Of a stretch of 64,000 nt of DNA, positions 27,642-62,353 are shown one piece after another. The DNA is taken from contig JAUNDK010000002.1 of NCBI GenBank assembly GCA_030526115.1, positions 29,236-93,235 on the forward strand, written 5' to 3'. The translations under genes were made by a program, and so were the position numbers. Position 1 is the stretch's first letter. Each line of letters begins with the position of its first letter. Under the pieces are notes generated by a model, which made no database searches, was not told where the DNA came from, and was given only the letters and a program-made list of their open reading frames with translations. Source of the DNA: Clostridia bacterium (GTDB lineage: Bacteria > Bacillota > Clostridia > Oscillospirales > Acutalibacteraceae).

Positions 27642-28925
27642 TTATTTATTTCTGAACTCATCGAGGTCAATAACCTGACCGTCATTTACTCTGGATTCCT
27701 CTGCGGCGAGGGCAATGAAGTGGCTCTCCATGCTTCTTCCGAGGGATGTTGTTCTGTGGTTTGGCTCCTCTTCGTTGATGAGCATATCGACAAACTCGCT
27801 GATCATTCCGCTGTCTCCGCCACCATGGCCTCTGAGGTCTGCGGAAAGGAGAGTTACGTCTATTTCTTCCTTTGGCTGACCGAAGGTTTCAACTGTGATG
27901 ATGTTGGACTTCATGTCGGCTGTGATTTCTCCGCCTGTACCCATGATGTGAATGTATCTGTAACACTTCTCTGTGAATGCGCACATTGTGAATGAAATTG
28001 TGCTTCCGTCTGTCATCTCCATGTTGATAACCTGATGATCGACAACATCGTTATCGCACATATATACACATCTGCCGTAAGGGCCGTGCGCAATTGCATC
28101 GTAGATATTCTCTCTTGTAGGATTTACTGAGAGAACCTCGCTCATAAAGCTGACTGTGTGGTCAATGCCTGTACCCTCGTTGGTAACGTAAATCTTCTCG
28201 GCATCGAATACGCACTTATCCTTAGCCTTGCAGCCGCCCATGCAGTAAGGTGTTGCGCCCTCGGGTGCACATTCTTTTCTGAAAAGTCTTGTGGAACCGA
28301 AAGAGCTTATCTTCTTGCAGGTTTTGCCTGTGAGCCAGAGAAGTATATCCATGTCATGGCAGCACTTCTGAAGTATCATAGGGCTGCTCTCTTTGGAGTT
28401 TCTCCAGTTTCCTCTTACGAAGGAGTGAGCCTGATGCCAGTAAGCAACATTCTCGTTTGCTGTGACGGATACTACATCGCCTACTCTGCCGCTGTGAATG
28501 AGATCATAGAGCTTGTTGTAGAATGCTGTATATCTTAATACGTGGCAGACAATAATTCTGGAGTTTGTTCCCTCTGCCGCTTTAAGAAGTTTCTGGCACT
28601 GATCGAGGTCAGGGGAAATAGGCTTCTCGAGAACAATGTCATATCCCTTCTCAAGGGCGAGAACACCTTCGTCAACATGCTGGCGGTCCATGGTGCAGAT
28701 GCATACAACATCGGCAAGTTTCGGCTGAGCGAGCATTTCCTCTGCGGACTCAAAACACATATCGTCTGCAATATTATAAAGTTCCTTTGCCTTCTGTACC
28801 TTCTCCGGTACGATGTCGGCAACAGCAACAACCTTGATTTTCTCCGGGTATAAATCTGCCATGGATGCATATGTGGAGCCACGGCTTCCGAAACCTGCGA
28901 TGGCAAAAGTAATCGGTGCTTTCAT
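27642..28925 (-). CDS. Gfo/Idh/MocA family oxidoreductase
   Basis: 427 aa. N-terminal Rossmann GFGSRG motif and the EKP signature (VLEKPIS). Confidence 0.85.
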   Translation of the reverse strand: MKAPITFAIAGFGSRGSTYASMADLYPEKIKVVAVADIVPEKVQKAKELYNIADDMCFESAEEMLAQPKLADVVCICTMDRQHVDEGVLALEKGYDIVLEKPISPDLDQCQKLLKAAEGTNSRIIVCHVLRYTAFYNKLYDLIHSGRVGDVVSVTANENVAYWHQAHSFVRGNWRNSKESSPMILQKCCHDMDILLWLTGKTCKKISSFGSTRLFRKECAPEGATPYCMGGCKAKDKCVFDAEKIYVTNEGTGIDHTVSFMSEVLSVNPTRENIYDAIAHGPYGRCVYMCDNDVVDHQVINMEMTDGSTISFTMCAFTEKCYRYIHIMGTGGEITADMKSNIITVETFGQPKEEIDVTLLSADLRGHGGGDSGMISEFVDMLINEEEPNHRTTSLGRSMESHFIALAAEESRVNDGQVIDLDEFRNK

Positions 28926-30544: not shown

Positions 30545-30670
30545 ACCTTTGCATTTCTTCTATCATCCGGACTATACCGTCGGTTCGGGAATTTCACCCG
30601 ATCAGCTCATAATGAGGTCGCGGACTATACCGCCGGTGAGGAATTACACCTCGCCCCGAAAAAATGTTTA
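30545..30670 (-). promoter_or_regulatory. FMN riboswitch (RFN element)
   Basis: The minus strand reads TTCGGGGCGAGGTGTAATTCCTCACCGGCGGTATAGTCCGCGACC...GATCGGGTGAAATTCCCGAACCGACGGTATAGTCCGGATGATAGAAGAA. This matches the conserved RFN core. Confidence 0.9.
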
Positions 30671-51643: not shown

Positions 51644-53119
51644 TCAGAATAAACCGGCAGTAGCCGAAGAAATTGCATTGTTCAGATAGCTCGGGTTGAG
51701 ACCTATGATGAACATTACTATTACGAACACAACGAGCGGAAGCACCATTCTCCATGTTGGATCCTGAATCTCGGCATCCTTTGAGAAGTCGAAATCCTTA
51801 CCCGGGAAGTATGCTCTTACACTTATTGTCATCATGTAAATAGCTGTGAGCAGAGCGGAAATGAGTATTGCACCTATTCCGAGATAGCCCCAGAGTGTGC
51901 CCTCAGCCGCTGCGGCTTCAGCCAGATTCCACTTGCTGACAAATCCCGCAAGTCCCGGAACACCCATAAGGGCAAGTCCTGATAAGGTGAACACGGAGAA
52001 TATCTTTGGCATTTTTCTGCCGAGACCGTCAAGCTCGTGAATATAATTCTTGTTGGCCTTATGTATAACCGCACCTGCACAGAAGAAGGCTGTAATCTTG
52101 ATGAGTGCGTGACATACCATGTGGCTGAGTGCGGCATCAAGTCCTGCCGGGGACATAATGAGCGCACCGAAAAGAATATAGGAAAGATTTGAAACTGTGG
52201 ACCACGCAAGTCTGCGCTTGAAATGGGTTTCCTTTAAAGCACGGCTGCAGCCGTAAACTATGGTGAACATGGTTAAACCGAGCAGTAAGTACTGTGCCCA
52301 TGTTCCCTTTAATATCTCTGTGCCGAAACAGAAGTAGGTTACTCTGATACAGGCGAATGCACCGGCCTTAACAACCGCAACCGCATGAAGCAGAGCTGTT
52401 ACCGGAGTAGGAGCAACACCGGCTTTCGGGAGCCATGAGGAGAACGGGAACATTGCGGCTTTTACGGAGAAACCGCAGAAGCAGAGAACATACACAATGA
52501 GAATGAGGTTTACTCTGTCGCCAACGGCTGTCATATCAAGCACACCGCCTGATGTAAAGCTGGAGGATGTACCGAACATCAGAAGGAATATCATTCCTAT
52601 GAATGCGAAAGCCGCACCGCCTAAAGAGTAATACATATATGTTCTTGTGGCGTAAACCGACTCAGGATTCAGCTCATGAATAACAAGCGGAATAGTAACC
52701 ATGGTGAGCATCTCATAGAAGAAGTAAAGGGAGATTATACCCTCGCTCATGGCGATACCTGCTGTTACGCCGTAGGTAATCATGTAGAAGCCGAAGAAGA
52801 AGTTCTGTCTGTGCTCGTGCTCCATATACTCAAAGGCATAGAGTGTGGCAAACGGCCAGAGGAAGGCGATAATCGCACAGAAAACCTTGCCTGTGCCGTC
52901 CAGCTTAAGTCCTATTGTGAGCTGACCTGTGAACTTGAATATAGTCAGGGCTTCTTTCGGGCTTTTGAATATGAGCATGAAGATAATAATCGAAGTGATT
53001 ACAGTCATCAGCTCTATGAATGTATTTCTTGTTTTTGTTTTGCTGTGGGGCATTGCCATTACAATGATTCCGCTGATAATCGGAAGAAGCACAGCAATCA
53101 ACATCATTTTGTTAGACAT
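51644..53119 (-). CDS. Antiporter-like subunit, MrpD/NuoN-type (copy 3)
   Basis: 491 aa. SWLPKAGVAPTPVTALLHA block. Confidence 0.85.
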   Translation of the reverse strand: MSNKMMLIAVLLPIISGIIVMAMPHSKTKTRNTFIELMTVITSIIIFMLIFKSPKEALTIFKFTGQLTIGLKLDGTGKVFCAIIAFLWPFATLYAFEYMEHEHRQNFFFGFYMITYGVTAGIAMSEGIISLYFFYEMLTMVTIPLVIHELNPESVYATRTYMYYSLGGAAFAFIGMIFLLMFGTSSSFTSGGVLDMTAVGDRVNLILIVYVLCFCGFSVKAAMFPFSSWLPKAGVAPTPVTALLHAVAVVKAGAFACIRVTYFCFGTEILKGTWAQYLLLGLTMFTIVYGCSRALKETHFKRRLAWSTVSNLSYILFGALIMSPAGLDAALSHMVCHALIKITAFFCAGAVIHKANKNYIHELDGLGRKMPKIFSVFTLSGLALMGVPGLAGFVSKWNLAEAAAAEGTLWGYLGIGAILISALLTAIYMMTISVRAYFPGKDFDFSKDAEIQDPTWRMVLPLVVFVIVMFIIGLNPSYLNNAISSATAGLF

Positions 53120-53131
53120 ATCTGTACCTCC

Positions 53132-54646
53132 TTATATTAATCCTGCGGCAATACCGCTGACAAAGTTTACAAGTGGATTCGGAACAACTCCCAGCATGAG
53201 AGTTACAAGAGCGACAATTACAAGAATAACCGTCATGGAATCTACCTTCTCCCTCTCCTTTGCAAGTCTGCATTCCTCACCCGGGAGAAAGCCCTTGATT
53301 GTTATAGGAAGAAGATAGCCTGCTGTGAGAAGTGCGGATACAAGAAGAATCGCAGGTCCGATATATTCAATAAGTCCTGTGCCGGACTGTAATGCACCCT
53401 GAGCTAAATACCACTTGCTGATGAATCCGCTGAAAGGCGGAATACCTACAAGCGCAAGAGATGCAAAGGTATATGCCCATAGGGTAATCGGATATTTTCT
53501 GCCGATTGCATAGTAATCATCAACCATGGTATTGCCTGTACGGAAGATGAATATACCTGCTGTGAGGAACAGTGCGGTCTTGATGAAAGCGTGGAAAACA
53601 ACGTGGAGCATTGCACCCTGAACCGCTGTTTCTGTGAGGCATGAAAGACCGAACATGATGTAGGAAACCTGGCTGACTGTGGAGTAGGCAAGTCTCTTCT
53701 TGAAGATTTTCTCTTTGTATGCGAGCATGGAACCCATGAGAACCGTCATGAGGGAAAGGCCCATCCATGCAACATGTACCCAAGTGCCTCTGATGAACTC
53801 TGTGCCCACGATGTAGTATATGCTTCTGAATACAGCAAGCACACCGCCCTTTACGATGATAGCGGAAAGCACTGCAGATGCAGGAGCCGGAGCAACAGGG
53901 TGAGCGGACGGAAGCCATCCGTGAAGCGGAAGCATACCGGCCTTTGCACCGAAACCGATGAGAATGAGGAACACACCGACCAGAATTACAGGTCTGTTAC
54001 CTGACGCAAGGTTGATGTCAATTGTTCCACCCGGTGTGAAATTGAGGGTAATGCAGTTGCGGTAAAGTATATATATTCCGAAGAGTGCGCTGTATGCACC
54101 TGCCATGGAATAGAAAAGATACTTAAGGGAAGCCATTATGGATTCTCTTGTTCCGCTGTGAAGAACCAGAGGCATGCTGGTTACGGTCATAAGCTCATAG
54201 AAGAAATAGAGAGTGATGAGGTTGCCTGAGAAACAGAGAGCCACAAGCACCGCATATACTATGAGATAGAAACCGTAGAATCTTTTCTCGTTGCCCTCGT
54301 GATGCATATACTTGAAAGAATATATGCACACAAGAACCCACATGATTGTAACAACCGTTACGAAAAGTGTGGAAACTTTGTCCACTCTGAAATAAATCGG
54401 AATAAGTCCGACAAATTTATTTAGGTGAAGCTGACTTCCCTGCTGCTTAAAAGCAGAGAAGAGAGTTATCAAAGCTGAAACAATCAGCACAGCAAGAGTA
54501 AGAATGTGAGTGTTTCTTATCTCTTTGGCTGTCTTTTTTCTGCCCATCCAGTCATTTGACCAGCGGTGGTCGTTAAATGAAGATATGAGCATTCCTGTTC
54601 CGAAACCTGCCGAGAGCAGTGACGGAATCAATAAGATTAAGTTCAT
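53132..54646 (-). CDS. Antiporter-like subunit, MrpD/NuoM-type (copy 2)
   Basis: 504 aa. GWLPSAHPVAPAPASAVLS block. Confidence 0.85.
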   Translation of the reverse strand: MNLILLIPSLLSAGFGTGMLISSFNDHRWSNDWMGRKKTAKEIRNTHILTLAVLIVSALITLFSAFKQQGSQLHLNKFVGLIPIYFRVDKVSTLFVTVVTIMWVLVCIYSFKYMHHEGNEKRFYGFYLIVYAVLVALCFSGNLITLYFFYELMTVTSMPLVLHSGTRESIMASLKYLFYSMAGAYSALFGIYILYRNCITLNFTPGGTIDINLASGNRPVILVGVFLILIGFGAKAGMLPLHGWLPSAHPVAPAPASAVLSAIIVKGGVLAVFRSIYYIVGTEFIRGTWVHVAWMGLSLMTVLMGSMLAYKEKIFKKRLAYSTVSQVSYIMFGLSCLTETAVQGAMLHVVFHAFIKTALFLTAGIFIFRTGNTMVDDYYAIGRKYPITLWAYTFASLALVGIPPFSGFISKWYLAQGALQSGTGLIEYIGPAILLVSALLTAGYLLPITIKGFLPGEECRLAKEREKVDSMTVILVIVALVTLMLGVVPNPLVNFVSGIAAGLI

Positions 54647-54661
54647 ATATCACTACTCCTG

Positions 54662-56170
54662 TTAAGCAAACATTTCGAGGCCCTTCTGAATCAGATTTAC
54701 TATCGGATCAGAGGCAAGGCCGAGAACAAAGTTGATTACGATTAAAACTGCCATTGCAATGCTCTTTGACGGCTGTGAACTTACGGTTAAATGAGTGTAA
54801 CCTGTCTCATCCACATGGAGTCTCTTTGCAGGTGTGTAAATTCTGATAACGGTCTTCATGAAATAAACCGCATTGAGAATTGTACTGATGGCAAGGGCAA
54901 GGAAAGTGAGAAGCATCTTGTGAGCACTCTCAACACCCGCCTGAGCAAAGAGGAGCTTTGAGATGAATCCCGCAAAAGCAGGGAAACCGATCATGGACAT
55001 GGAACCTACTGTGAAAGTAAATCCTGCCAGCTTGTTTCTGTAACCGGAACCTGTAAGGCTGAGGAAATCTCTCTTGCCGCAGGATGTGTCCGTAAGGCCG
55101 GAGGCCGCAATAAACAGCAGTGACTTTGTTGCCGCATGAACCAGAATATGATAGATGCTGGCAATCATACCGTTTGTTGTACCGAGACCGATGCCCATGA
55201 AGATGTAACCGATCTGAGCTATGGATGAATAGGCAATCATTCTGCGGATGTCGTTTTCACGAATAGCATCGAGGGAACCGATAATCATACCCACAATACC
55301 GAACATGAAGAGCACATTTATCATCTTATCGTTTACGATAACATCAAAGCCGAAGACTCTGTAAATTATCTTGATGAGAATGAAAAGGTAACCCTTTGAT
55401 ACGAGGGATGAAAGTATGGCCGCACTGGAAAGAGTGGAGTAACCGTAGGCATCCGGGAGCCATGTGTGGAAGGGGAACAGCGCACACTTGATGCACAGAC
55501 CGACAACCATAAGGCAGATTGAAATGAGCAGCGGAGTGTTATAAGCTCCTGTTGCAACGAGGTTTGTTACAGCCTCTTTAATGTTGCTCATGAGAAGCTG
55601 ACCTGTAATTCCGTAAAGCCAGCACAGACCGAGCAGAAGAAGACCGGAACCGAGCAGGGACATAACCATGTATCTTGTTGCCGCGTAGGCGTTTCTGCCA
55701 CGCTGACGAATCATGATGAGTCCGCATGCTGAGATGGTGTTTATCTCAACGAAAACGTATGCTGTAAAGAGGTCGTTTGTGTAAACAAGAGCGATAAGGG
55801 AGCACATGAGAAGGTTAATCATGGCATAATAGAGGTTCTGTTTGGATTCCTCCACCTCGGCGGCTGTCTCGATTCTTCCGGCGATTACGCTGAAGAACAT
55901 AATCACGGAGAAGAACAGCGCCATGCCACCCTCGAGTATGCTGGCTCTTATCTCGTTACCCCATGGTGCCGGAAAATGACCCATGCGGTAAACAAAGCTC
56001 TCGCCTGTCTTTATGCAGTAGGCAAATACAAAGGCATTGAGCACACACATCATGAAAATCATGACTGTGTTTATGTATTTGACTTTCTTTCCCTTAAGTA
56101 CAGATGAGAGAGGACCTGTGAAAAGGGAAATGATTATGCAGAAAAAGGGAAAATTCTGAATAAAATCCAT
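54662..56170 (-). CDS. Antiporter-like subunit, MrpD/NuoN-type (copy 1)
   Basis: 502 aa. HTWLPDAYGYSTLSSAAILS block. Confidence 0.85.
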   Translation of the reverse strand: MDFIQNFPFFCIIISLFTGPLSSVLKGKKVKYINTVMIFMMCVLNAFVFAYCIKTGESFVYRMGHFPAPWGNEIRASILEGGMALFFSVIMFFSVIAGRIETAAEVEESKQNLYYAMINLLMCSLIALVYTNDLFTAYVFVEINTISACGLIMIRQRGRNAYAATRYMVMSLLGSGLLLLGLCWLYGITGQLLMSNIKEAVTNLVATGAYNTPLLISICLMVVGLCIKCALFPFHTWLPDAYGYSTLSSAAILSSLVSKGYLFILIKIIYRVFGFDVIVNDKMINVLFMFGIVGMIIGSLDAIRENDIRRMIAYSSIAQIGYIFMGIGLGTTNGMIASIYHILVHAATKSLLFIAASGLTDTSCGKRDFLSLTGSGYRNKLAGFTFTVGSMSMIGFPAFAGFISKLLFAQAGVESAHKMLLTFLALAISTILNAVYFMKTVIRIYTPAKRLHVDETGYTHLTVSSQPSKSIAMAVLIVINFVLGLASDPIVNLIQKGLEMFA

Positions 56171-56553
56171 TATCTGTCCTCCTCCTCTTTTTCTATCATG
56201 GCTGAAATTATATCGAGGTCAAGGCTGTGGTAACGGTCATAAAGTCTTATGGTAAGACCAAGCATTACAGCGGTAACGGAAACCGAAACAACAATACCTG
56301 TAAGAACCAGGCCCGAAGGAATCGGGTTGATGTAAGCTTCTACACTCTGAACACCGTCAACGACTATCGGAGCAACTCTGCCTGTTATGTAACCCTTGAG
56401 GGCAAGGAACAGGTAAACCGAGGTATCCATGATGTTCATACCGATGATTTTCTTTATGAGGTTGTGCTGCATGAGCAGATTACAGAAGCCTATACCGAAC
56501 AGTATCATTGAGATGGCCTCTGCATAATTTGTGAGGAGATTTGCAAAATTCAT
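56170..56553 (-). CDS. Mrp subunit C (MnhC/NuoK-like)
   Basis: 127 aa with three TM helices. 1-nt overlap with the downstream D-type gene. Confidence 0.85.
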   Translation of the reverse strand: MNFANLLTNYAEAISMILFGIGFCNLLMQHNLIKKIIGMNIMDTSVYLFLALKGYITGRVAPIVVDGVQSVEAYINPIPSGLVLTGIVVSVSVTAVMLGLTIRLYDRYHSLDLDIISAMIEKEEEDR

Positions 56554-56554
56554 A

Positions 56555-57508
56555 TCAATAATCTCCTTTCCTGAACATTACATAGAAGGTATACATTGTT
56601 CCCGCAACAACAATACCTACGCAGATATTGAGTATGAGTATGAGACCGGAGGAAATGATGTTTCCAGGTGTTCCCTTTGGAATAATGCTCTCTATGTGGT
56701 TTGCGCCTGTGTAGAAGGAATAGCTCTTGCAGAGGGCATAGGTTCCGAGAGCGGCAATGCTCATAATCTTGTAGGTTTTTGAAGTGAAGAAACGCTCTGT
56801 CTTGGCAAAGCCGAAGGCATTGATATAAAGGATAAGTCCCGCACCGATGATGGCACCGCCGGAGAATCCGCCGCCCGGTCCCAAATGACCACAGAGAATT
56901 ACATAAATACCGAAGATGAAAATCGGAGGAACAAGAACCTTTGCCACAACCTGAAGAATAGCGTCATTCTTAGGCTCGTAAATACGGTCGGAAATATTCG
57001 CCTTCTTCTTGTTGTCTTTTCTTAAAAGAATGAGAACCGCACATGTTGCAATAAAGAGAACATGGCTTTCACCCAGAGTATCGAAGGCTCTGTAATCGAG
57101 TATCATGCCTGTAACAATGTTTACGGCGCCTGTCTCCTGAAGGCCCTGCTCAATATAACGCTGAGCGACCTCATTATTAACAGGATTATCCGCATTACCG
57201 AAAGGTGGAAGCGCCGCTACACCGTAAAGCAGCATACCCACAAGGAACACACAGAAAACTATGCTGAAAACCTTGTATGTTCTTGAGAACCTTGCAACAC
57301 CCTTGTTATGGGTGACATCAAGAGCTCTTACCCTGATTTCGTGGGCATCTTTCTCGCTCTTTTTAAAGGCTTCGTCACTTATTGTCTTTTCTTTCTGAGG
57401 CTTCATCTCAAGCTCGCCGACAAAGTAGTCCTTTGTTCCGTCATACCATGACTTAAGCTTGTATGAAACGGTCTTTTTATATTCGCTCTCAGGAATTCTC
57501 CTCGACAT
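56555..57508 (-). CDS. Mrp subunit B-like (MnhB domain) with an N-terminal hydrophilic extension
   Basis: 317 aa. NIVTGMILDYRAFDTLGE and GHLGPGGGFSGGAI motifs, preceded by a charged region of about 70 aa. Confidence 0.8.
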   Translation of the reverse strand: MSRRIPESEYKKTVSYKLKSWYDGTKDYFVGELEMKPQKEKTISDEAFKKSEKDAHEIRVRALDVTHNKGVARFSRTYKVFSIVFCVFLVGMLLYGVAALPPFGNADNPVNNEVAQRYIEQGLQETGAVNIVTGMILDYRAFDTLGESHVLFIATCAVLILLRKDNKKKANISDRIYEPKNDAILQVVAKVLVPPIFIFGIYVILCGHLGPGGGFSGGAIIGAGLILYINAFGFAKTERFFTSKTYKIMSIAALGTYALCKSYSFYTGANHIESIIPKGTPGNIISSGLILILNICVGIVVAGTMYTFYVMFRKGDY

Positions 57509-57794
57509 CGTTTTCTTCCTCCTTTCCTTCGTCGTTCATATACTCATCGTCGTTGTTTTTCTCGATGGAGTTAATCTTCTTGAGTGTTACGAAGAAGAGA
57601 ACCGTTGTAACACCGGCACCAACCGCCGCCTCGGTTATGGCGAGGTCGGGGGATTCAAGAAGCACCCATACTATGGACATGACAAGGCTGTATGTCATGA
57701 ATATGAGAATTGAGTTAAGCAGACTTTTTGTGAAACTGGCGGCAATCGCACACACCACCAGGAATATGAGGAGAGATGCAAAAAAGATATTCAT
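57489..57794 (-). CDS. MbhD/DUF4040-like small membrane subunit (MrpA C-terminal-region homolog)
   Basis: 101 aa. SPDLAITEAAVGAGVTT motif and an acidic C-terminal tail. Confidence 0.75.
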   Translation of the reverse strand: MNIFFASLLIFLVVCAIAASFTKSLLNSILIFMTYSLVMSIVWVLLESPDLAITEAAVGAGVTTVLFFVTLKKINSIEKNNDDEYMNDEGKEEENDVEENS

Positions 57795-58174
57795 TATTTC
57801 TCCTCCTTTTCTTCGCTGTTTCTGTTCTCGAGCGCCTCAACCTCTTCGATTGAATAATGCTCATAGTGTCTGTCAGGTTCTTCATCGGTTGTAACCTCAA
57901 GTCTTGTGATAAGGTGAGATGAAACCGGAGAGGAGAACCAGAGGAAGATTATGACAACAAACAGCTTGAGACTTGTGAAGTTAAGTCCGCTCATTATGAT
58001 AAGACCCGCAAGAGCAAGACCTATGCCCAGAGTATCTCCCATGGCGGCGGCGTGCATACGGTTGAGAACATACCTGAATTTAAACACGCCTATCATCTCA
58101 ACGATGAAGATAAAAACACCGGCACATATGAACGCAGCGCCGATTACGAATCTAAGCCAGTCCAGAATGCTCAT
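57794..58174 (-). CDS. Mrp subunit G (MnhG)
   Basis: 126 aa with three TM helices. Start and stop overlap the neighbouring genes. Confidence 0.8.
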   Translation of the reverse strand: MSILDWLRFVIGAAFICAGVFIFIVEMIGVFKFRYVLNRMHAAAMGDTLGIGLALAGLIIMSGLNFTSLKLFVVIIFLWFSSPVSSHLITRLEVTTDEEPDRHYEHYSIEEVEALENRNSEEKEEK

Positions 58175-58473
58175 CTGTGATCCTCCTCATCTTTTCTCTG
58201 CAGATATACGCCCATATAAACCTTGCACAGTACAATAACGGCAAGGAAGCTGATGGCGGCATAAATTATGCAGATATCAGCAAGGTAACCTTCGTGCATC
58301 ATAACCGCAAGCAGAGCGATTATGGTGATAACCATGGTACCCATCATGTTTGTGGCAACAATTCTGTCAGCAACCCTCGGTCCGATAATAGCTCTTACAA
58401 GGCAGAGTATTACAAGAATTGAGAGTATGACAAGTATTACCACGAAAAATCCCATTACATTTGTAAGATCCAT
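58171..58473 (-). CDS. Mrp subunit F (MnhF)
   Basis: 100 aa. IGPRVADRIVA motif. Confidence 0.8.
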   Translation of the reverse strand: MDLTNVMGFFVVILVILSILVILCLVRAIIGPRVADRIVATNMMGTMVITIIALLAVMMHEGYLADICIIYAAISFLAVIVLCKVYMGVYLQRKDEEDHR

Positions 58474-58496
58474 TTTTCTACCCTTTCTTATAAAGC

Positions 58497-59009
58497 TTAC
58501 CAGTTACCGTTGGAGTTGCTTCTTCTTTCTCCCCTTAATGCCTGCTTTGCGACATTTTCCATCTCTCGGAGCATTTTCACGAAAACGCTCTCGCTCATGC
58601 CGACGGCAAGGGAGGTATCAAGGCAGTGGATGAGGTAATCATCCTCTTCAAGCATAACGGTGATTGTTCCGGGTGTTAATGTGATGGCATTGGCAAGCAG
58701 AGCCCTGCCTGTCTTTGTTTTGAGGTCTGACTTGAAATAGACAAGGGCCGGAACAGGCTCCTCACGCTCGGTGAGTATCATTTTCATGACATAGCCGTTT
58801 GCCTTGAAAATTTCAATGACCAGAACTATCACATACTTAACGCCCTTTGCGGCATTTCTGTAAAGAGCCACCTCTTTTTTGATGCTGTGATCCATAAATG
58901 CACACACAAAGGCAAACACAGCGGCGGCTACTATAAGACCGATGACCGCAATCTCGAGGGTAAGATTACCGTTGAATATTACCCATACAAGAAAAAACAG
59001 CAGATACAT
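58497..59009 (-). CDS. Mrp subunit E (MnhE)
   Basis: About 170 aa. ITLTPGT motif. ATG 59009 is best spaced from GGAGGA (the ORF track starts at 59015). Confidence 0.8.
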   Translation of the reverse strand: MYLLFFLVWVIFNGNLTLEIAVIGLIVAAAVFAFVCAFMDHSIKKEVALYRNAAKGVKYVIVLVIEIFKANGYVMKMILTEREEPVPALVYFKSDLKTKTGRALLANAITLTPGTITVMLEEDDYLIHCLDTSLAVGMSESVFVKMLREMENVAKQALRGERRSNSNGNW

Positions 59010-59160
59010 ACACATATCCTCCTGATATATATAGTAATGTGATACAGTAAAAATAACTCTTGCACATAGTTTTATATTATACCACTTTTGCCCCTGCTTA
59101 GCGGTGTTATTATGTACAAATCAATGCCGAAATTTTGTCCTGTTTATGAACTATTTTTGT

Positions 59161-59209: not shown

Positions 59210-60766
59210 CTATTCAATTATTCTGAGGCCCGCCTGTTTTATTTCTTTTCCGCTGTATGCACCTATTAAATCCTCCTCGGGATTAATAAGTATGCCCATG
59301 TAATGCCCCAGCTTTTTCATCAGGTAATTATGAATATTCTCGTCCCCTGTGCTGTACTGCAGTTCCCTCTGTAAAGGGTGACTGTGGGCAAAACCGAGGA
59401 ACACAAGACCGTCTCCGATGAAATCATCACGGTCATCGGAATACGGAAAATTCTTCCTGATAATTTCTGTCTCTCTTACAGCGTGCTTTAATGTATCGGA
59501 GGCAAATTTTGCCGTATCCTCGTTTATTCTTACAGTAAGGGATGGAAATACATATTTCACAACCCATGAATCACCTGTTCTGAAGCCGACAAGTCCCGCC
59601 TGCTGTTCATACATGGAATAAGGATTTCTTCTGCCCATGTGGAAAAGACTGCGAAGTTCTTTATAAGCATCGGGCTCTATGTAAATTACCTCGCCCACAT
59701 CTTCACCGCTTATCTCCGTTATACCGAGTTCGGGATATTTAATCCTGATATAATCCTTATAATCAGCTGTTTTTGAAAAAGTATCTCTGTAACAGAAGCG
59801 TGGTTCGTTCTTCTCGAAGTCCCATGTGTGCAGACTGTCTCCCACGCATTTATCGAAGTATTCACAGCCTTTGCATTTTTCGGAAACCGGGCGGTTTCTG
59901 AAGTACTCAAAACCGTTTTTCCATTTTTCCGAGAATGAATCTGTTTTAATATTACCCTGAATGAGAAAATCTTTTCTCGGCACATTCGGGCACACGAAGA
60001 TATCTCCGTTATACAGCACACTCGCCGCATGAATACCTGCAAAGCAGTCGAAATCTCTGCCCGGAAGCAGATTGCCGAGAAAATGCGGACAGCCCCACAC
60101 AACGGGGGTTCTGTGCTGTGCATTCACTTTTACAATGAAATCCGTAATGAACTTTATATCCTCCGCACTCACGGCAAGATCAAGGTTATCCTCAGCTCTG
60201 CCTATTGGGTCCACTATGCTGGTGCGAATGGAATCAAGCCCTATTTTATCAAGTTCCTCATAAAGTGCCGGGAATTCCCTGACATTCCTGCTGTTTGATG
60301 TGAAAGTTACCTGAATATGGTCGAGAAAATCCGCATCTTTCAGCTTTCTTAAATTGCGCAGTATCACATCATAGGAACCGGGCAGATGGCGCAGACTTTC
60401 ATGGGTTTCTCTAAGTCCGTCAAGGCTTATCGTAATGGTTTTCATACCGCTTGTTTTCATCTTTTCGATGACTGCATCGCTTATAAGAACACCGTTTGTC
60501 ACCATGCCCCAGTCAAAACCCATCCCGGAACCTTCAGTCATAATCTCGAACAGATCTTTGCGCATAAGTGGTTCCCCGCCGCTTATGTTAATCATGACAT
60601 CGGTTCCGATGTTTTCTTTCACATCCCTGAGACACGCAAGAATTTCCTCTGCGGTGAGAAGCTCTTCGCTGTCGATATCACAGCGGCTTCCGCAGTGGTC
60701 ACATTTTGCGTTACATTTCTGTGTTACCTCGAAAAGCAGTACTCTGAGGCTGTAATCTTTAATCAT
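59210..60766 (-). CDS. Radical SAM / SPASM-like enzyme fused to a C-terminal JAB/MPN (JAMM) metalloprotease-like domain
   Basis: 518 aa. CNAKCDHC (CX3CX2C), GGEPL, and the SPASM-like pattern C-x12-G-x4-C ... CKGCEYFDKCVGDS ... C. The C-terminal 160 aa or so carry YEQQAGLVG ... HSHP-x8-STGD. Confidence 0.8.
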   Translation of the reverse strand: MIKDYSLRVLLFEVTQKCNAKCDHCGSRCDIDSEELLTAEEILACLRDVKENIGTDVMINISGGEPLMRKDLFEIMTEGSGMGFDWGMVTNGVLISDAVIEKMKTSGMKTITISLDGLRETHESLRHLPGSYDVILRNLRKLKDADFLDHIQVTFTSNSRNVREFPALYEELDKIGLDSIRTSIVDPIGRAEDNLDLAVSAEDIKFITDFIVKVNAQHRTPVVWGCPHFLGNLLPGRDFDCFAGIHAASVLYNGDIFVCPNVPRKDFLIQGNIKTDSFSEKWKNGFEYFRNRPVSEKCKGCEYFDKCVGDSLHTWDFEKNEPRFCYRDTFSKTADYKDYIRIKYPELGITEISGEDVGEVIYIEPDAYKELRSLFHMGRRNPYSMYEQQAGLVGFRTGDSWVVKYVFPSLTVRINEDTAKFASDTLKHAVRETEIIRKNFPYSDDRDDFIGDGLVFLGFAHSHPLQRELQYSTGDENIHNYLMKKLGHYMGILINPEEDLIGAYSGKEIKQAGLRIIE

Positions 60767-60945
60767 CTTCTCTTCTTACCGAGCAGAAGCTTTTTGATTC
60801 TGTTTGAGGCCGGAGCACCGTAATAAACCTGAGCCTGAGCCTGGGATTCTCCGTTTTTGTCAACTGAGGTCTTTCCGCTGTTGCATCCTGCCAATGCGCC
60901 GAGCATTAATGCAAGTGCCATGATTATTGCTATGATTTTTTTCAT
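60763..60945 (-). CDS. Small lipobox peptide 1 (60 aa), candidate radical SAM substrate
   Basis: MKKIIAIIMALALMLGALAG/C lipoprotein signal. C-terminal VYYGAPASNRIKKLLLGKKRR. ATGA overlaps at both ends. Confidence 0.7.
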   Translation of the reverse strand: MKKIIAIIMALALMLGALAGCNSGKTSVDKNGESQAQAQVYYGAPASNRIKKLLLGKKRR

Positions 60946-61154
60946 GATTCTGTTCTCCTTCTTTTTAACAGATTTAGTTTTGAAATACGCTTTGAATTCG
61001 GACAGCCGTAATATTCCACAAATTCGGATACGGTCTGTTCCTCTGCTTCCAATGGAATTTCGGCAGAGGAGTCATCTGATTTTCTCTCGGCATTACATCC
61101 GGCAAGCAGGGCAAGCGACAGCAATGCCAGTAACAGACTCAGAATTTTCTTCAT
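60942..61154 (-). CDS. Small lipobox peptide 2 (70 aa), candidate radical SAM substrate
   Basis: MKKILSLLLALLSLALLAG/C lipoprotein signal. C-terminal EYYGCPNSKRISKLNLLKRRRTES. RBS AAGGTG lies 8 nt upstream. Confidence 0.7.
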   Translation of the reverse strand: MKKILSLLLALLSLALLAGCNAERKSDDSSAEIPLEAEEQTVSEFVEYYGCPNSKRISKLNLLKRRRTES

Positions 61155-61184: not shown

Positions 61185-61213
61185 ATTATATTCCTATTTT
61201 ATATCTCTTTCAA
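61185..61213 (-). promoter_or_regulatory. Sigma-70-type promoter of the peptide/radical SAM operon
   Basis: TTGAAA (61213-61208), 17-nt spacer, TATAAT (61190-61185). Confidence 0.65.
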
Positions 61214-61244: not shown

Positions 61245-61267
61245 CTTTATTGAAAGAGAGGGATTTT

Positions 61268-61879
61268 ATGCACATACCAAAAGGAAAATCTCAGGACGAG
61301 AATATTCTGAGTTTTGAAGAAGCGCTTACTCATCGGGAGGACAGCAGTATTTATGACAGAGACAGATGGCTTTATATTCCGGATTTTTACTCCGAGTATC
61401 GTTACATACTGGGCACAAAGGGCAAAAAGCCGCTTATCTGCATAGGAATAAACCCGTCAACAGCGGAACCGGATAACCTTGACAATACTCTTAAATCCGT
61501 GCAGAGAATAGCAGACGGCAACGGCTTCGATTCCTTTATCATGTTCAATGTTTACGCCCAGAGGGCGACAAACCCCGATGACATGGACAAAGAACTTAAC
61601 CTCGAGATGCACGAAGAAAACATGAAGGCTTTTCGCTATATCATGAAGTTCAGCTGTGAAAGCCCTGCCGTATGGGCGGCATGGGGAACCATAATCGAGA
61701 AAAGAAAGTACCTGATAGACTGTGTTGCCGACATGATTAAAATCGGCGAGGAATTCGGCGCAAAGTGGTACAGGGCAGGAAAAGTCAGTGCAAAGGGTCA
61801 CCCTCACCACCCGCTGTATTTGAGAAAAGATTCCGTTCTTGAGCCTTTCGATGTGGTTGGAACTTACAACATAAAGTAA
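61268..61879 (+). CDS. DUF1643 domain protein
   Basis: ATG 61268 behind GAGAGGGA (the track's TTG 61250 would lie at the predicted transcription start). ICIGINPSTA and FIMFNVYAQRAT blocks, recalled as typical of DUF1643. Confidence 0.7.
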   Translation: MHIPKGKSQDENILSFEEALTHREDSSIYDRDRWLYIPDFYSEYRYILGTKGKKPLICIGINPSTAEPDNLDNTLKSVQRIADGNGFDSFIMFNVYAQRATNPDDMDKELNLEMHEENMKAFRYIMKFSCESPAVWAAWGTIIEKRKYLIDCVADMIKIGEEFGAKWYRAGKVSAKGHPHHPLYLRKDSVLEPFDVVGTYNIK

Positions 61880-61885
61880 AACAAA

Positions 61886-62353
61886 ATGAAAAGAGTACTT
61901 GTTAAATCGGTTTTCGATGCTTTCGATTATGTAATGCAGCACTATTACCCCGCAGGGCTTGAGGATCTTGCGGAAAAAACTGACAGCTATGCGGTAATAT
62001 CCATTCAGGATACCCACACCGACGGTTTTGGTCTTACTTTTTCAAAGAGCAGATGCTGCAGAGATGTTCTCACCCTGAAATTTGATGATATTATCCGTCC
62101 TGTTGAGTTTGCGGTACTGTTCTCGGAAGATATGGCAGAAAGCATTATCCGTTTCATAGAGGATAATAAATCCGTCGATACTCTGCTTGTTCATTGCTAT
62201 GCAGGGCAGTCACGATCCATGGCTGTGGGTGCCTTTGCCGTGTGGATGCTCGGCGGTGACAATTCAAAATACTTTGAAGGACACTGCCCCAACGAATATG
62301 TATATGACATGCTGACAACAACATATTTAAGAAAACAGATTTTATCCGAATAA
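61886..62353 (+). CDS. Cys-based phosphatase-like protein (HCX5R(S/T) motif)
   Basis: 155 aa. VHCYAGQSRS active-site-like loop. Starts 6 nt after the DUF1643 stop. Confidence 0.65.
   Translation: MKRVLVKSVFDAFDYVMQHYYPAGLEDLAEKTDSYAVISIQDTHTDGFGLTFSKSRCCRDVLTLKFDDIIRPVEFAVLFSEDMAESIIRFIEDNKSVDTLLVHCYAGQSRSMAVGAFAVWMLGGDNSKYFEGHCPNEYVYDMLTTTYLRKQILSE

Follow-up and report, generated by a model that had tools for sequence, protein, structure and literature searches.

A radical SAM/SPASM enzyme fused to a JAB/MPN domain in Clostridia and the tagged peptides that it may modify and cut

The stretch of DNA analysed here (the window) comprises 64,000 nucleotides from a Clostridia bacterium of the Acutalibacteraceae (assembly GCA_030526115.1, contig JAUNDK010000002.1, positions 29,236 to 93,235) and encodes an enzyme in which a radical S-adenosylmethionine (SAM) core and a SPASM-type auxiliary-cluster region are fused to a C-terminal JAB/MPN domain. 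Two short genes, whose products end in a tag built around a Tyr-Gly motif, immediately precede the enzyme gene (Table 1). The observations described below would suggest that enzyme and peptides form a two-component modify-and-cut cassette, akin to those that produce peptides made on the ribosome and modified after translation (RiPPs): a Y-G-C-P motif would be modified by the radical SAM/SPASM half, and the basic tail that follows it would be cut off by the JAB half. This reading, which is drawn from sequence comparison, is given a probability of about 0.6. What is new is the fusion of a JAB peptidase to a radical SAM/SPASM peptide-maturation system, together with an unannotated family of precursors; no description of either the fusion or the peptide family was found in the searchable literature.

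The first two regions of the enzyme are recognized by domain profiles and place it in the radical SAM superfamily. The Radical_SAM family PF04055 matches residues 13-155 with 78.4 bits (cut-off 29.5), and this core contains the cluster motif C18-x3-C22-x2-C25 as well as GGEPL (G63-L67). The SPASM profile (PF13186 / TIGR04085) matches residues 241-302 with 30.1 bits, against a cut-off of 21.5. Specifically, the auxiliary-cluster region reads C241-x12-G254-x4-C259, then C298-x2-C301-x5-C307-x3-S311 and finally C325 in FCYRD. The seven-Cys SPASM signature CX9-15GX4C...CX2CX5CX3C...C is incomplete, with Ser311 in place of the fourth Cys, and the other six Cys and an upstream C226 are present. The original prediction, made from the letters of the DNA, had listed these motifs, C226 apart, together with YEQQAGLVG and a JAMM motif further on; every one of them was found at the position given for it, and the assignment to radical SAM, SPASM-like and JAMM domains is borne out by Pfam, by the fold and by conservation. 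The bare patterns are only moderately rare, as shuffling the protein 20,000 times produced H.H.{7,8}S..D in 66 cases and CX3CX2C in 96; the motifs are taken as real because conservation and fold support them. In fact, more than 120 full-length homologues of 52-65% identity, annotated just as 'radical SAM protein', occur in metagenome-assembled genomes of Clostridia and Lachnospiraceae. All the named motif residues are invariant across 40 homologues of this identity range, and invariant or conserved in 9/10 when 9 further radical SAM/SPASM-JAB fusions of 35-59% identity are aligned.

For the C-terminal domain, sequence-only tests are weak and a fold search was therefore needed: residues 330-518 have no Pfam match, and a profile of the domain run against the PDB matches solely AMSH-type JAMM proteases, at E 0.08-0.6, in an alignment that pairs lGfiHsHPiq with LGWIHTHPTQ and Asp with Asp. 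An AlphaFold2 (AF2) model of residues 336-518, built with 26 homologues, has a mean predicted local distance difference test score (pLDDT) of 90.3. When this model was compared with the PDB by Foldseek, 191 matches were obtained at E<=1e-3, and the best 50 (E about 2e-8 to 1e-6, probability 1.00, template modelling score 0.47-0.65) are MPN proteins throughout, including CSN6, CSN5, Rpn8, Rpn11, BRCC36 and a Caldiarchaeum Rpn11 homologue. Judging from the modelled fold, the last ~180 residues are a genuine JAB/MPN domain, and not the non-JAB fold that had been named as the outcome against the original prediction.

The putative catalytic residues are likewise conserved. E387, H461, S462, H463, P464, S472, G474, D475 and H479 are invariant in the alignment of 40 sequences; in the divergent fusions E387, H461, H463, P464, D475 and H479 remain invariant, and S472 is found in 9/10. 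Over 50 fused sequences taken together, E387, H461, H463 and D475 never change and S472 is kept in 49, so that the conservation of Glu, HxH, Ser and Asp, another point on which the prediction had been made to depend, holds. The element around the catalytic Glu, EQQ(M/A)(A/G)L(I/V)G, spans E-x6-G, which we take to equal in length the canonical E-x2-G-x-L-x-G strand of Rpn11 and AMSH. An exhaustive HMMER scan of 1.84 billion cluster representatives with the JAB domain retrieved 76 proteins only at E<=1e-3, and more radical SAM/SPASM-JAB fusions, of 35-45% identity, are among them. Other layouts exist as well. Four proteins of ~400 residues (P0263, P0267, P0270, P0274) begin with a related JAB domain, and Pfam matches nothing in the ~200 residues behind it; by sequence, this layout represents another, uncharacterised arrangement within the same JAB subfamily. 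Stand-alone JAB homologues were seen on two short contigs: one (L091) has an intact motif and no adjacent radical SAM gene, and the other (L090, 42..647; 201 residues) has a degenerate metal motif, with H-S-R for H-S-H and G-K-G-D for S-x-x-D, and a Lys-rich C-terminus.

The auxiliary-cluster region shows a comparable degree of fixation. Outside the SAM cluster, seven Cys (226, 241, 259, 298, 301, 307 and 325) and H313 are invariant, and Ser311 with its neighbours, C-x-G-D-S-L-H-T, is the same in all 50 aligned fusions. In members of TIGR04133, the family closest to the enzyme (see below), and in neighbouring loci with the radical SAM part alone, the fourth-Cys position is occupied by Gly (24), Ala (6) or Ser (4), and a conserved His comes next. 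In the structure of anSME, the fourth Cys of CX2CX5CX3C folds back as a ligand of auxiliary cluster I. With an anSME-like ligation and Ser311 at this position, auxiliary cluster I of the fused clade therefore probably has three Cys ligands (C226, C241 and C259), and its remaining site would be either open or bound by His313 or the substrate. An auxiliary cluster I with an open site has been reported in CteB to bind a Cys of the substrate.

The two genes upstream of the enzyme provide the likely substrates. A promoter-like site, peptide 2, peptide 1 and the enzyme follow each other in this order; ATGA start/stop overlaps couple peptide 2 to peptide 1 and peptide 1 to the enzyme, and the three genes are apparently transcribed as a single unit. 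A six-frame translation of the whole window contains YG.P.S twice, in peptides 1 and 2. Against NCBIfam, Pfam and PHROGs, both peptides gave generic lipoprotein signal-peptide noise alone. Peptide 2, annotated merely as 'lipoprotein', belongs to the family of peptides with a YGCP tag described below (P0133, 74 bits). The tag of peptide 1 has Ala for both Cys and Asn of YYGCPNS, and a search of 5.8 billion protein clusters returned no relative besides itself; peptide 1 is therefore an orphan diverged paralogue, and not the representative of a Cys-less YYGAP subfamily. As such, it would offer a natural Cys-less control substrate. In addition, the Lys/Arg codons of the basic tails (AAGAAGAGAAGATGA and AAGAAGGAGAACAGAATCATGA) double as a purine-rich ribosome-binding stretch leading into the ATGA overlap (60766..60800 and 60945..60965, reverse strand), and the tail sequence is thus under a dual constraint, since the same codons form the ribosome-binding stretch of the next gene.

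The association extends well beyond the window. Loci of the fused family were compared in the window and in ten other contigs (L081, L083, L085, L086, L087, L092, L093 and L094, and the divergent L089 and L088), the carriers of the system being Clostridia and Lachnospiraceae metagenome-assembled genomes. In all 11 loci, open reading frames (ORFs) bearing the tag, 1-7 per locus, adjoin the enzyme gene; in other words, short genes with a conserved motif stand beside a maturase, which is the arrangement by which RiPP systems are recognized. No other gene is conserved around the enzyme-peptide pair across the 11 loci, and in particular no separate protease gene near the enzyme, so that any processing needed must be supplied by the fusion protein itself. 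The original prediction had proposed a bifunctional enzyme that modifies and cleaves, and this idea becomes more plausible with likely substrates recognized at 11/11 loci.

Searching with a peptide profile yields at least 407 proteins, mostly of 55-95 residues, with no Pfam domain and labelled 'hypothetical' or 'lipoprotein'. The figures that follow refer to the best 120 of these at least 407 members. Y-G-C-P, a Ser at +4 and a Leu at +10 are each present in 120/120, and the consensus reads [DE][DE]xV[CD]YYGCPNSKRVKKLNLKK. The general layout consists of a membrane anchor, an acidic linker and a C-terminal tag of the form [DE]xV-x-YYGCPNSKRVKKLxLKK; 15-22 residues follow the Gly, and the tail has a mean net charge of +7. 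A further Cys, at position -3 (V-C-Y-Y-G-C-P), is found in 48/120. Three classes of N-terminus can be distinguished: ~73 lipobox signal peptides, ~21 hydrophobic anchors without the lipobox Cys and ~26 amphipathic helices, the latter conserved as M[RS]SIIALILSWLKKIFAFF (also given as M[RS]SIIALILSWLKK). In the divergent loci the tails vary and YGCP is retained (CYYGCPDSNRVRALRTKRR, DYYGCPVSKRLSALRTKKRVRR, LYGCPTAKIFCDSD...).

Single loci add some detail to this picture. Seven tandem precursor genes follow the enzyme in L092 (4117..5590), all with helical N-termini and no signal peptide; their tags vary (HYGCPNSKRTERLQLKKR, LYGCPSSEHTKKLQL, HYGCPASNRTKKLQL), and the first Tyr of YY is therefore replaceable, with YGCP-x-S kept. 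In L083 (1350..3989), six ORFs bear the tag, among them longer proteins of 93, 129 and 187 residues, and by their sequences the tag is evidently not confined to short peptides and can be added to proteins too; this region is crowded with small unannotated ORFs, and may be a mobile element. A 56-residue ORF directly upstream of the enzyme in L094 (2325..2495) has a tail-like end (NVKKAEKLRTQKYW) and no YGCP; it may have arisen by decay of a precursor, or be a decoy that consists of the tail alone.

Among described families, the closest to residues 2-327 of the enzyme in NCBIfam is TIGR04133 (rSAM_w_lipo), with 240 bits and E 3.5e-71 against a cut-off of 425; true members score far higher (591 bits in L002, 577 bits in L018). 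By its profile score, the enzyme is a relative of TIGR04133 and not a member. Likewise, the window peptides have no match to the partner family TIGR04134 (lipo_with_rSAM) in NCBIfam at E<=0.1. This pair of families is found mainly in Bacteroidota, mostly Bacteroidales, and is computationally defined and uncharacterised. It was compared with the fused clade through a scan of genome contigs, whose listed matches are distant JAB-less relatives of <=37% identity. The two systems have much in common. TIGR04133 enzymes also do without the fourth Cys and have a conserved His thereafter, C.G[NGS][GAS][LM]H corresponding to C.GDSLH in the window clade, and they are likewise encoded beside lipoproteins that bear Y-G-x-P. 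They differ in that, among the matches listed, the enzymes are of ~350 residues, 30-37% identical to the window enzyme and with no JAB domain within 4 kb. Their partners are either TIGR04134 lipoproteins or small lipoproteins with Y-G-[TMVAPQ]-P; they are lipoproteins of 120-170 residues with YGxP right after the lipobox Cys, unlike the short peptides of the window type with their C-terminal YYGCPNS-basic tag. In many cases the partner motif adjoins the lipobox Cys on its C-terminal side (..FQACYGTPQD..) or occurs as a repeat (KYGMPISKYGMPPS), and upstream lipoproteins with the lipobox Cys just before the motif (..FQA-C-YG[TMP]P..) were seen in L008, L009, L010, L017, L021, L030 and L033. A Cys near the Tyr-Gly pair is thus recurrent in both TIGR04134 partners and Clostridial peptides. 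The Clostridial clade is set apart by the JAB fusion, by the invariant Cys after Gly and by the C-terminal basic follower.

On these grounds, the following mechanism can be proposed. The substrates would be small membrane-tethered peptides, held either by the signal peptide of a lipoprotein, by a signal anchor or by an amphipathic N-terminal helix, and carrying an acidic linker and the C-terminal tag; a cytoplasmic enzyme would act twice on this tag, first by modification and then by cleavage. In the radical SAM/SPASM half, cleavage of SAM would yield the 5'-deoxyadenosyl radical, through which the Y-G-C-P motif would be modified. The open site on a three-Cys auxiliary cluster I might bind the thiolate of the invariant substrate Cys, as has been reported of CteB, and because such a cluster could dock this Cys, a Cys-centred cross-link such as a thioether is, by analogy, the leading guess for the chemistry. 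The JAB half would act as a Zn-dependent JAMM-type peptidase, with H461, H463 and D475 as ligands, E387 as general base, and S472, and would cut in or just after the motif, freeing the basic follower. JAMM enzymes typically cut after a C-terminal Gly, and YYG|CP is therefore proposed as the site of cleavage. In the classes with a signal peptide, cleavage would leave an N-terminal fragment to be exported and anchored by a lipid. Since most precursors carry Sec/lipoprotein signals and an iron-sulphur (Fe-S) enzyme has to be in the cytoplasm, it could be that the +7 tail serves as both a recognition handle and a brake on export; a brake released by cleavage is a speculative element. The identity of the domains, the conserved catalytic motifs, the close adjacency and coupling of the genes and the peptide family with its motif are observed; the role of the peptides as substrates, the sequence of the two steps, the kind of radical chemistry and the point of cleavage we infer.

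Some observations weigh against this mechanism. A cytoplasmic Fe-S enzyme would have to act on lipoprotein precursors that Sec exports, and needs a kinetic window in which to do so before they leave. The tail in the divergent locus L088 is acidic instead of basic. Moreover, TIGR04133 systems, which have no JAB domain, show T, M, V, A, P or Q after YG, not Cys; if the chemistry is common to both clades, it cannot depend on that Cys. As these relatives tolerate T, M, V, A and P after YG, the shared chemistry may centre on Tyr, Gly or Pro, and splicease-like, cyclophane-like or Cα chemistry at the YGCP motif may be considered. As for the JAB domain, the window protein has no match to JAB (PF01398) or Prok-JAB (PF14464) above the Pfam gathering thresholds. 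In 26 aligned close homologues, 12 weak Prok-JAB matches (best E 0.014) and 6 weak JAB matches (best E 0.008) were found, all sub-threshold; distant relatives pass the cut-offs, namely P0265 for Prok-JAB (27.5 bits vs 25) and P0267 and P0274 for JAB. Finally, the spacer between HxH and Ser is x8, and the canonical one is x7. The original prediction had counted these eight residues correctly, and the alignments place the same x8 in every fused homologue, ungapped and with S-x2-D retained; the HMMER alignment to AMSH puts the extra spacer residue elsewhere. Neither the Ser in place of Cys nor the x8 spacer varies anywhere in the fused clade, and both are family hallmarks under selection, not decay. 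The earlier caveat that either activity could be degenerate on account of these two oddities is not supported, TIGR04133 itself being without the fourth Cys.

Can the JAB domain have a role other than cleavage? It might be mainly a peptide-docking module that replaces the RiPP recognition element (RRE) and holds the C-terminal tag for the radical SAM site, the tail being removed by another protease or not at all. Neither Pfam nor NCBIfam finds an RRE or PqqD-like domain in the enzyme, whose radical SAM core begins at residue 8. In addition, MPN domains are binders of extended C-terminal tails, and many of them act as scaffolds without catalysis; CSN6 and Rpn8 are among the top Foldseek matches. 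Non-catalytic MPN- domains, however, have lost E/HxH/S/D, and here all five residues are conserved at 35-65% identity; nor is there the conserved protease gene that such a division of labour would call for in the 11 loci. A JAB domain that docks only is for these reasons unlikely, and docking and cleavage are not mutually exclusive.

A second alternative questions the role of the small ORFs. The enzyme could act on a small molecule or cofactor, as the haem and d1-haem enzymes AhbD and NirJ do, and the JAB domain on an unrelated protein, the peptides being merely co-operonic. In agreement with this, the next-best NCBIfam families after TIGR04133 are AhbD (1e-39) and NirJ (2e-34), over the N-terminal 200 residues; these matches, however, lie far below their cut-offs (for example, 137 bits vs 500) and reflect the generic radical SAM core only. 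No tetrapyrrole genes lie nearby, and mere co-occurrence is hard to reconcile with adjacency in 11/11 loci, translational coupling and a near-invariant 20-residue tag, which makes this explanation quite improbable. Weakest of all, and very improbable, is the notion that the JAB domain works as the deconjugating isopeptidase in a conjugation system of the ubiquitin-like (Ubl) or CBASS/Bil type, like Cap3, Mec+ and QbsD, and that the fusion is a defence or sulfur-carrier variant: it draws on the Ubl or CD-NTase tails that most characterised prokaryotic JAB proteins serve, and on a viperin-like similarity reported by PADLOC for residues 12-122, but this is a generic radical SAM similarity, the JAB domain matches neither PADLOC nor PHROG entries, the loci share no conserved gene for E1, E2, Ubl or CD-NTase, and the sole Ubl-like match seen, a weak ThiS in L093, lies ~2 kb off on the opposite strand. 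For the same reason, a reading of the window locus as a defence system was rejected, the viperin-like similarity stopping short of the JAB domain; PHROGs lends no support to a phage role either.

The modify-and-cut cassette can be compared with several known systems. In the full-length AF2 model, the N-terminal 330 residues have SkfB, SuiB, CteB, anSME and PqqE as best structural matches (E 1e-14 to 1e-11, 15-22% identity), and the window enzyme shares with all five a radical SAM barrel and a C-terminal auxiliary-cluster domain. It differs from SuiB and CteB in having no N-terminal RRE, and its scores fall below the NCBIfam cut-offs of all the named maturases. To our knowledge, none of CteB, SuiB, SkfB, anSME and PqqE has a fused protease, and every characterised radical SAM/SPASM maturase that we know of depends on a separate protease, usually of another class. 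With the JAMM/MPN+ proteins (AMSH, Rpn11, CSN5 and BRCC36; QbsD, Mec+ and Cap3), the C-terminal domain has in common the fold, E...HxH...S-x2-D and the E-x6-G length; it departs from them by its x8 spacer, its sub-threshold Pfam score, the fusion to radical SAM, the lack of a Ubl partner and a presumed linear-tail substrate. Among these proteins, QbsD trims residues after Gly-Gly, a precedent for the removal of a short C-terminal extension after Gly.

A functional analogy, and only that, can be drawn with MftC/MftE (mycofactocin), PqqE/PqqF (pyrroloquinoline quinone, PQQ) and AgrD/AgrB (autoinducing peptide), in which a short peptide of ribosomal origin first receives a modification close to the C-terminus and is cut afterwards. 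In particular, AgrD has an N-terminal amphipathic membrane helix, similar to that of ~26/120 of the Clostridial peptides, and loses a charged tail at the C-terminus that serves for recognition. These systems employ other protease families, with the protease unfused to the modifying enzyme; moreover, mycofactocin and PQQ derive from single-copy cofactor precursors, in contrast to the multi-copy membrane-anchored peptides of the window type. No chemistry on the YG motif, whether that of spliceases, anSME or MftC-like enzymes or the formation of cyclophanes, can be assigned from homology, all scores being far below cut-offs. For MftC, the enzyme reaches 105.6 bits against 265. Spliceases act at an X-Y-G site of the substrate; for the splicease PlpX (TIGR04103) the score is 105.7 bits against 725, over residues 9-221 only, and the resemblance is limited to the Y-Y-G motif. 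The substrate motif of anSME is C/S-x-P/A-x-R; the tag reads C-P-N-S-K-R, with Pro directly after Cys, and the similarity to anSME is structural alone.

Table 1. Features of the cassette (window positions; residue numbers refer to the respective protein)
Feature	Position	Strand	Basis
Promoter-like TTGAAA-17-TATAAT, 11/12 matches, upstream of the peptide 2 gene	61185..61213	-	Consensus match alone; such sites are no commoner in the region than in shuffles
Candidate precursor peptide 2, 70 residues; lipobox signal peptide (LLAGC), acidic linker, tag EFVEYYGCPNSKRISKLNLLKRRRTES	60942..61154	-	ORF call, family profile
YYGCPNS core motif of peptide 2, residues 48-54	60993..61013	-	Family alignment
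Candidate precursor peptide 1, 60 residues; lipobox signal peptide (LAGC), variant tag QVYYGAPASNRIKKLLLGKKRR	60763..60945	-	ORF call
YYGAPAS variant motif of peptide 1, residues 41-47	60805..60825	-	Sequence reading
Fused radical SAM/SPASM-JAB enzyme, 518 residues	59210..60766	-	ORF call; Pfam, NCBIfam
Radical SAM core, ~residues 8-225, with CX3CX2C (60692..60715) and GGEPL	60092..60745	-	Pfam PF04055
SPASM-type auxiliary-cluster region, ~residues 226-330	59777..60091	-	Pfam, alignments
Ser311, at the canonical fourth-Cys position of CX2CX5CX3C	59834..59836	-	Alignments
JAB/MPN domain, ~residues 345-518	59213..59734	-	AF2, Foldseek, conservation
E387 (in YEQQAGLVG)	59606..59608	-	Alignments
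JAMM stretch HSHPLQRELQYSTGD, H461-S-H463-x8-S472-x2-D475	59342..59386	-	Sequence, alignments

Directly downstream of the enzyme, on the same strand, lies a complete row of genes for a Mrp/Mnh-type multisubunit cation/H+ antiporter (51644..59015, reverse strand), which includes MnhE (58497..59015) and three large subunits of 491-504 residues. No terminator-like site was found in the 195-nt gap between them, and co-transcription of the enzyme with this row is possible; no Mrp/Mnh genes occur in the listed neighbourhoods of the other fused-family loci, and the association does not look conserved. On the other side, divergent from the cassette, are a gene for a DUF1643 protein (118 bits; 61250..61879, forward strand) and, after it, a 155-residue ORF (61886..62353, forward strand) with a weak, sub-threshold match to the active-site region of dual-specificity phosphatases. 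The sole Rfam match in the window is a flavin mononucleotide (FMN) riboswitch (RF00050, 115.9 bits; 30551..30667, reverse strand), upstream of the ORF at 27642..28925; the search for tRNA genes in the window gave none.

Much of the new chemistry found on peptides comes from radical SAM/SPASM maturases. With a JAB/JAMM peptidase covalently fused to such an enzyme, leaders or followers would be removed by a new route, and a fold that is otherwise associated with ubiquitin-like systems would have a new function. In addition, the shared YGxP motif provides a first handle on the long-uncharacterised TIGR04133/TIGR04134 pair. A broader scheme can be put forward, tentatively and with considerable doubt, in which the cassettes make a new class of membrane-anchored, largely lipoprotein-type, radical SAM-modified peptides in gut and rumen Clostridia. 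The basic follower would act there as handle and export brake, its removal by the JAB domain, which would be the first JAMM protease to take part in a RiPP-type maturation, would license Sec/Lgt export only after modification of YGCP, and in Bacteroidota the related JAB-less TIGR04133/TIGR04134 systems would put the same modification on the YGxP of surface lipoproteins. Should the products indeed be modified peptides that a lipid anchors at the cell surface, this would have a bearing on host-microbe and microbe-microbe interactions.

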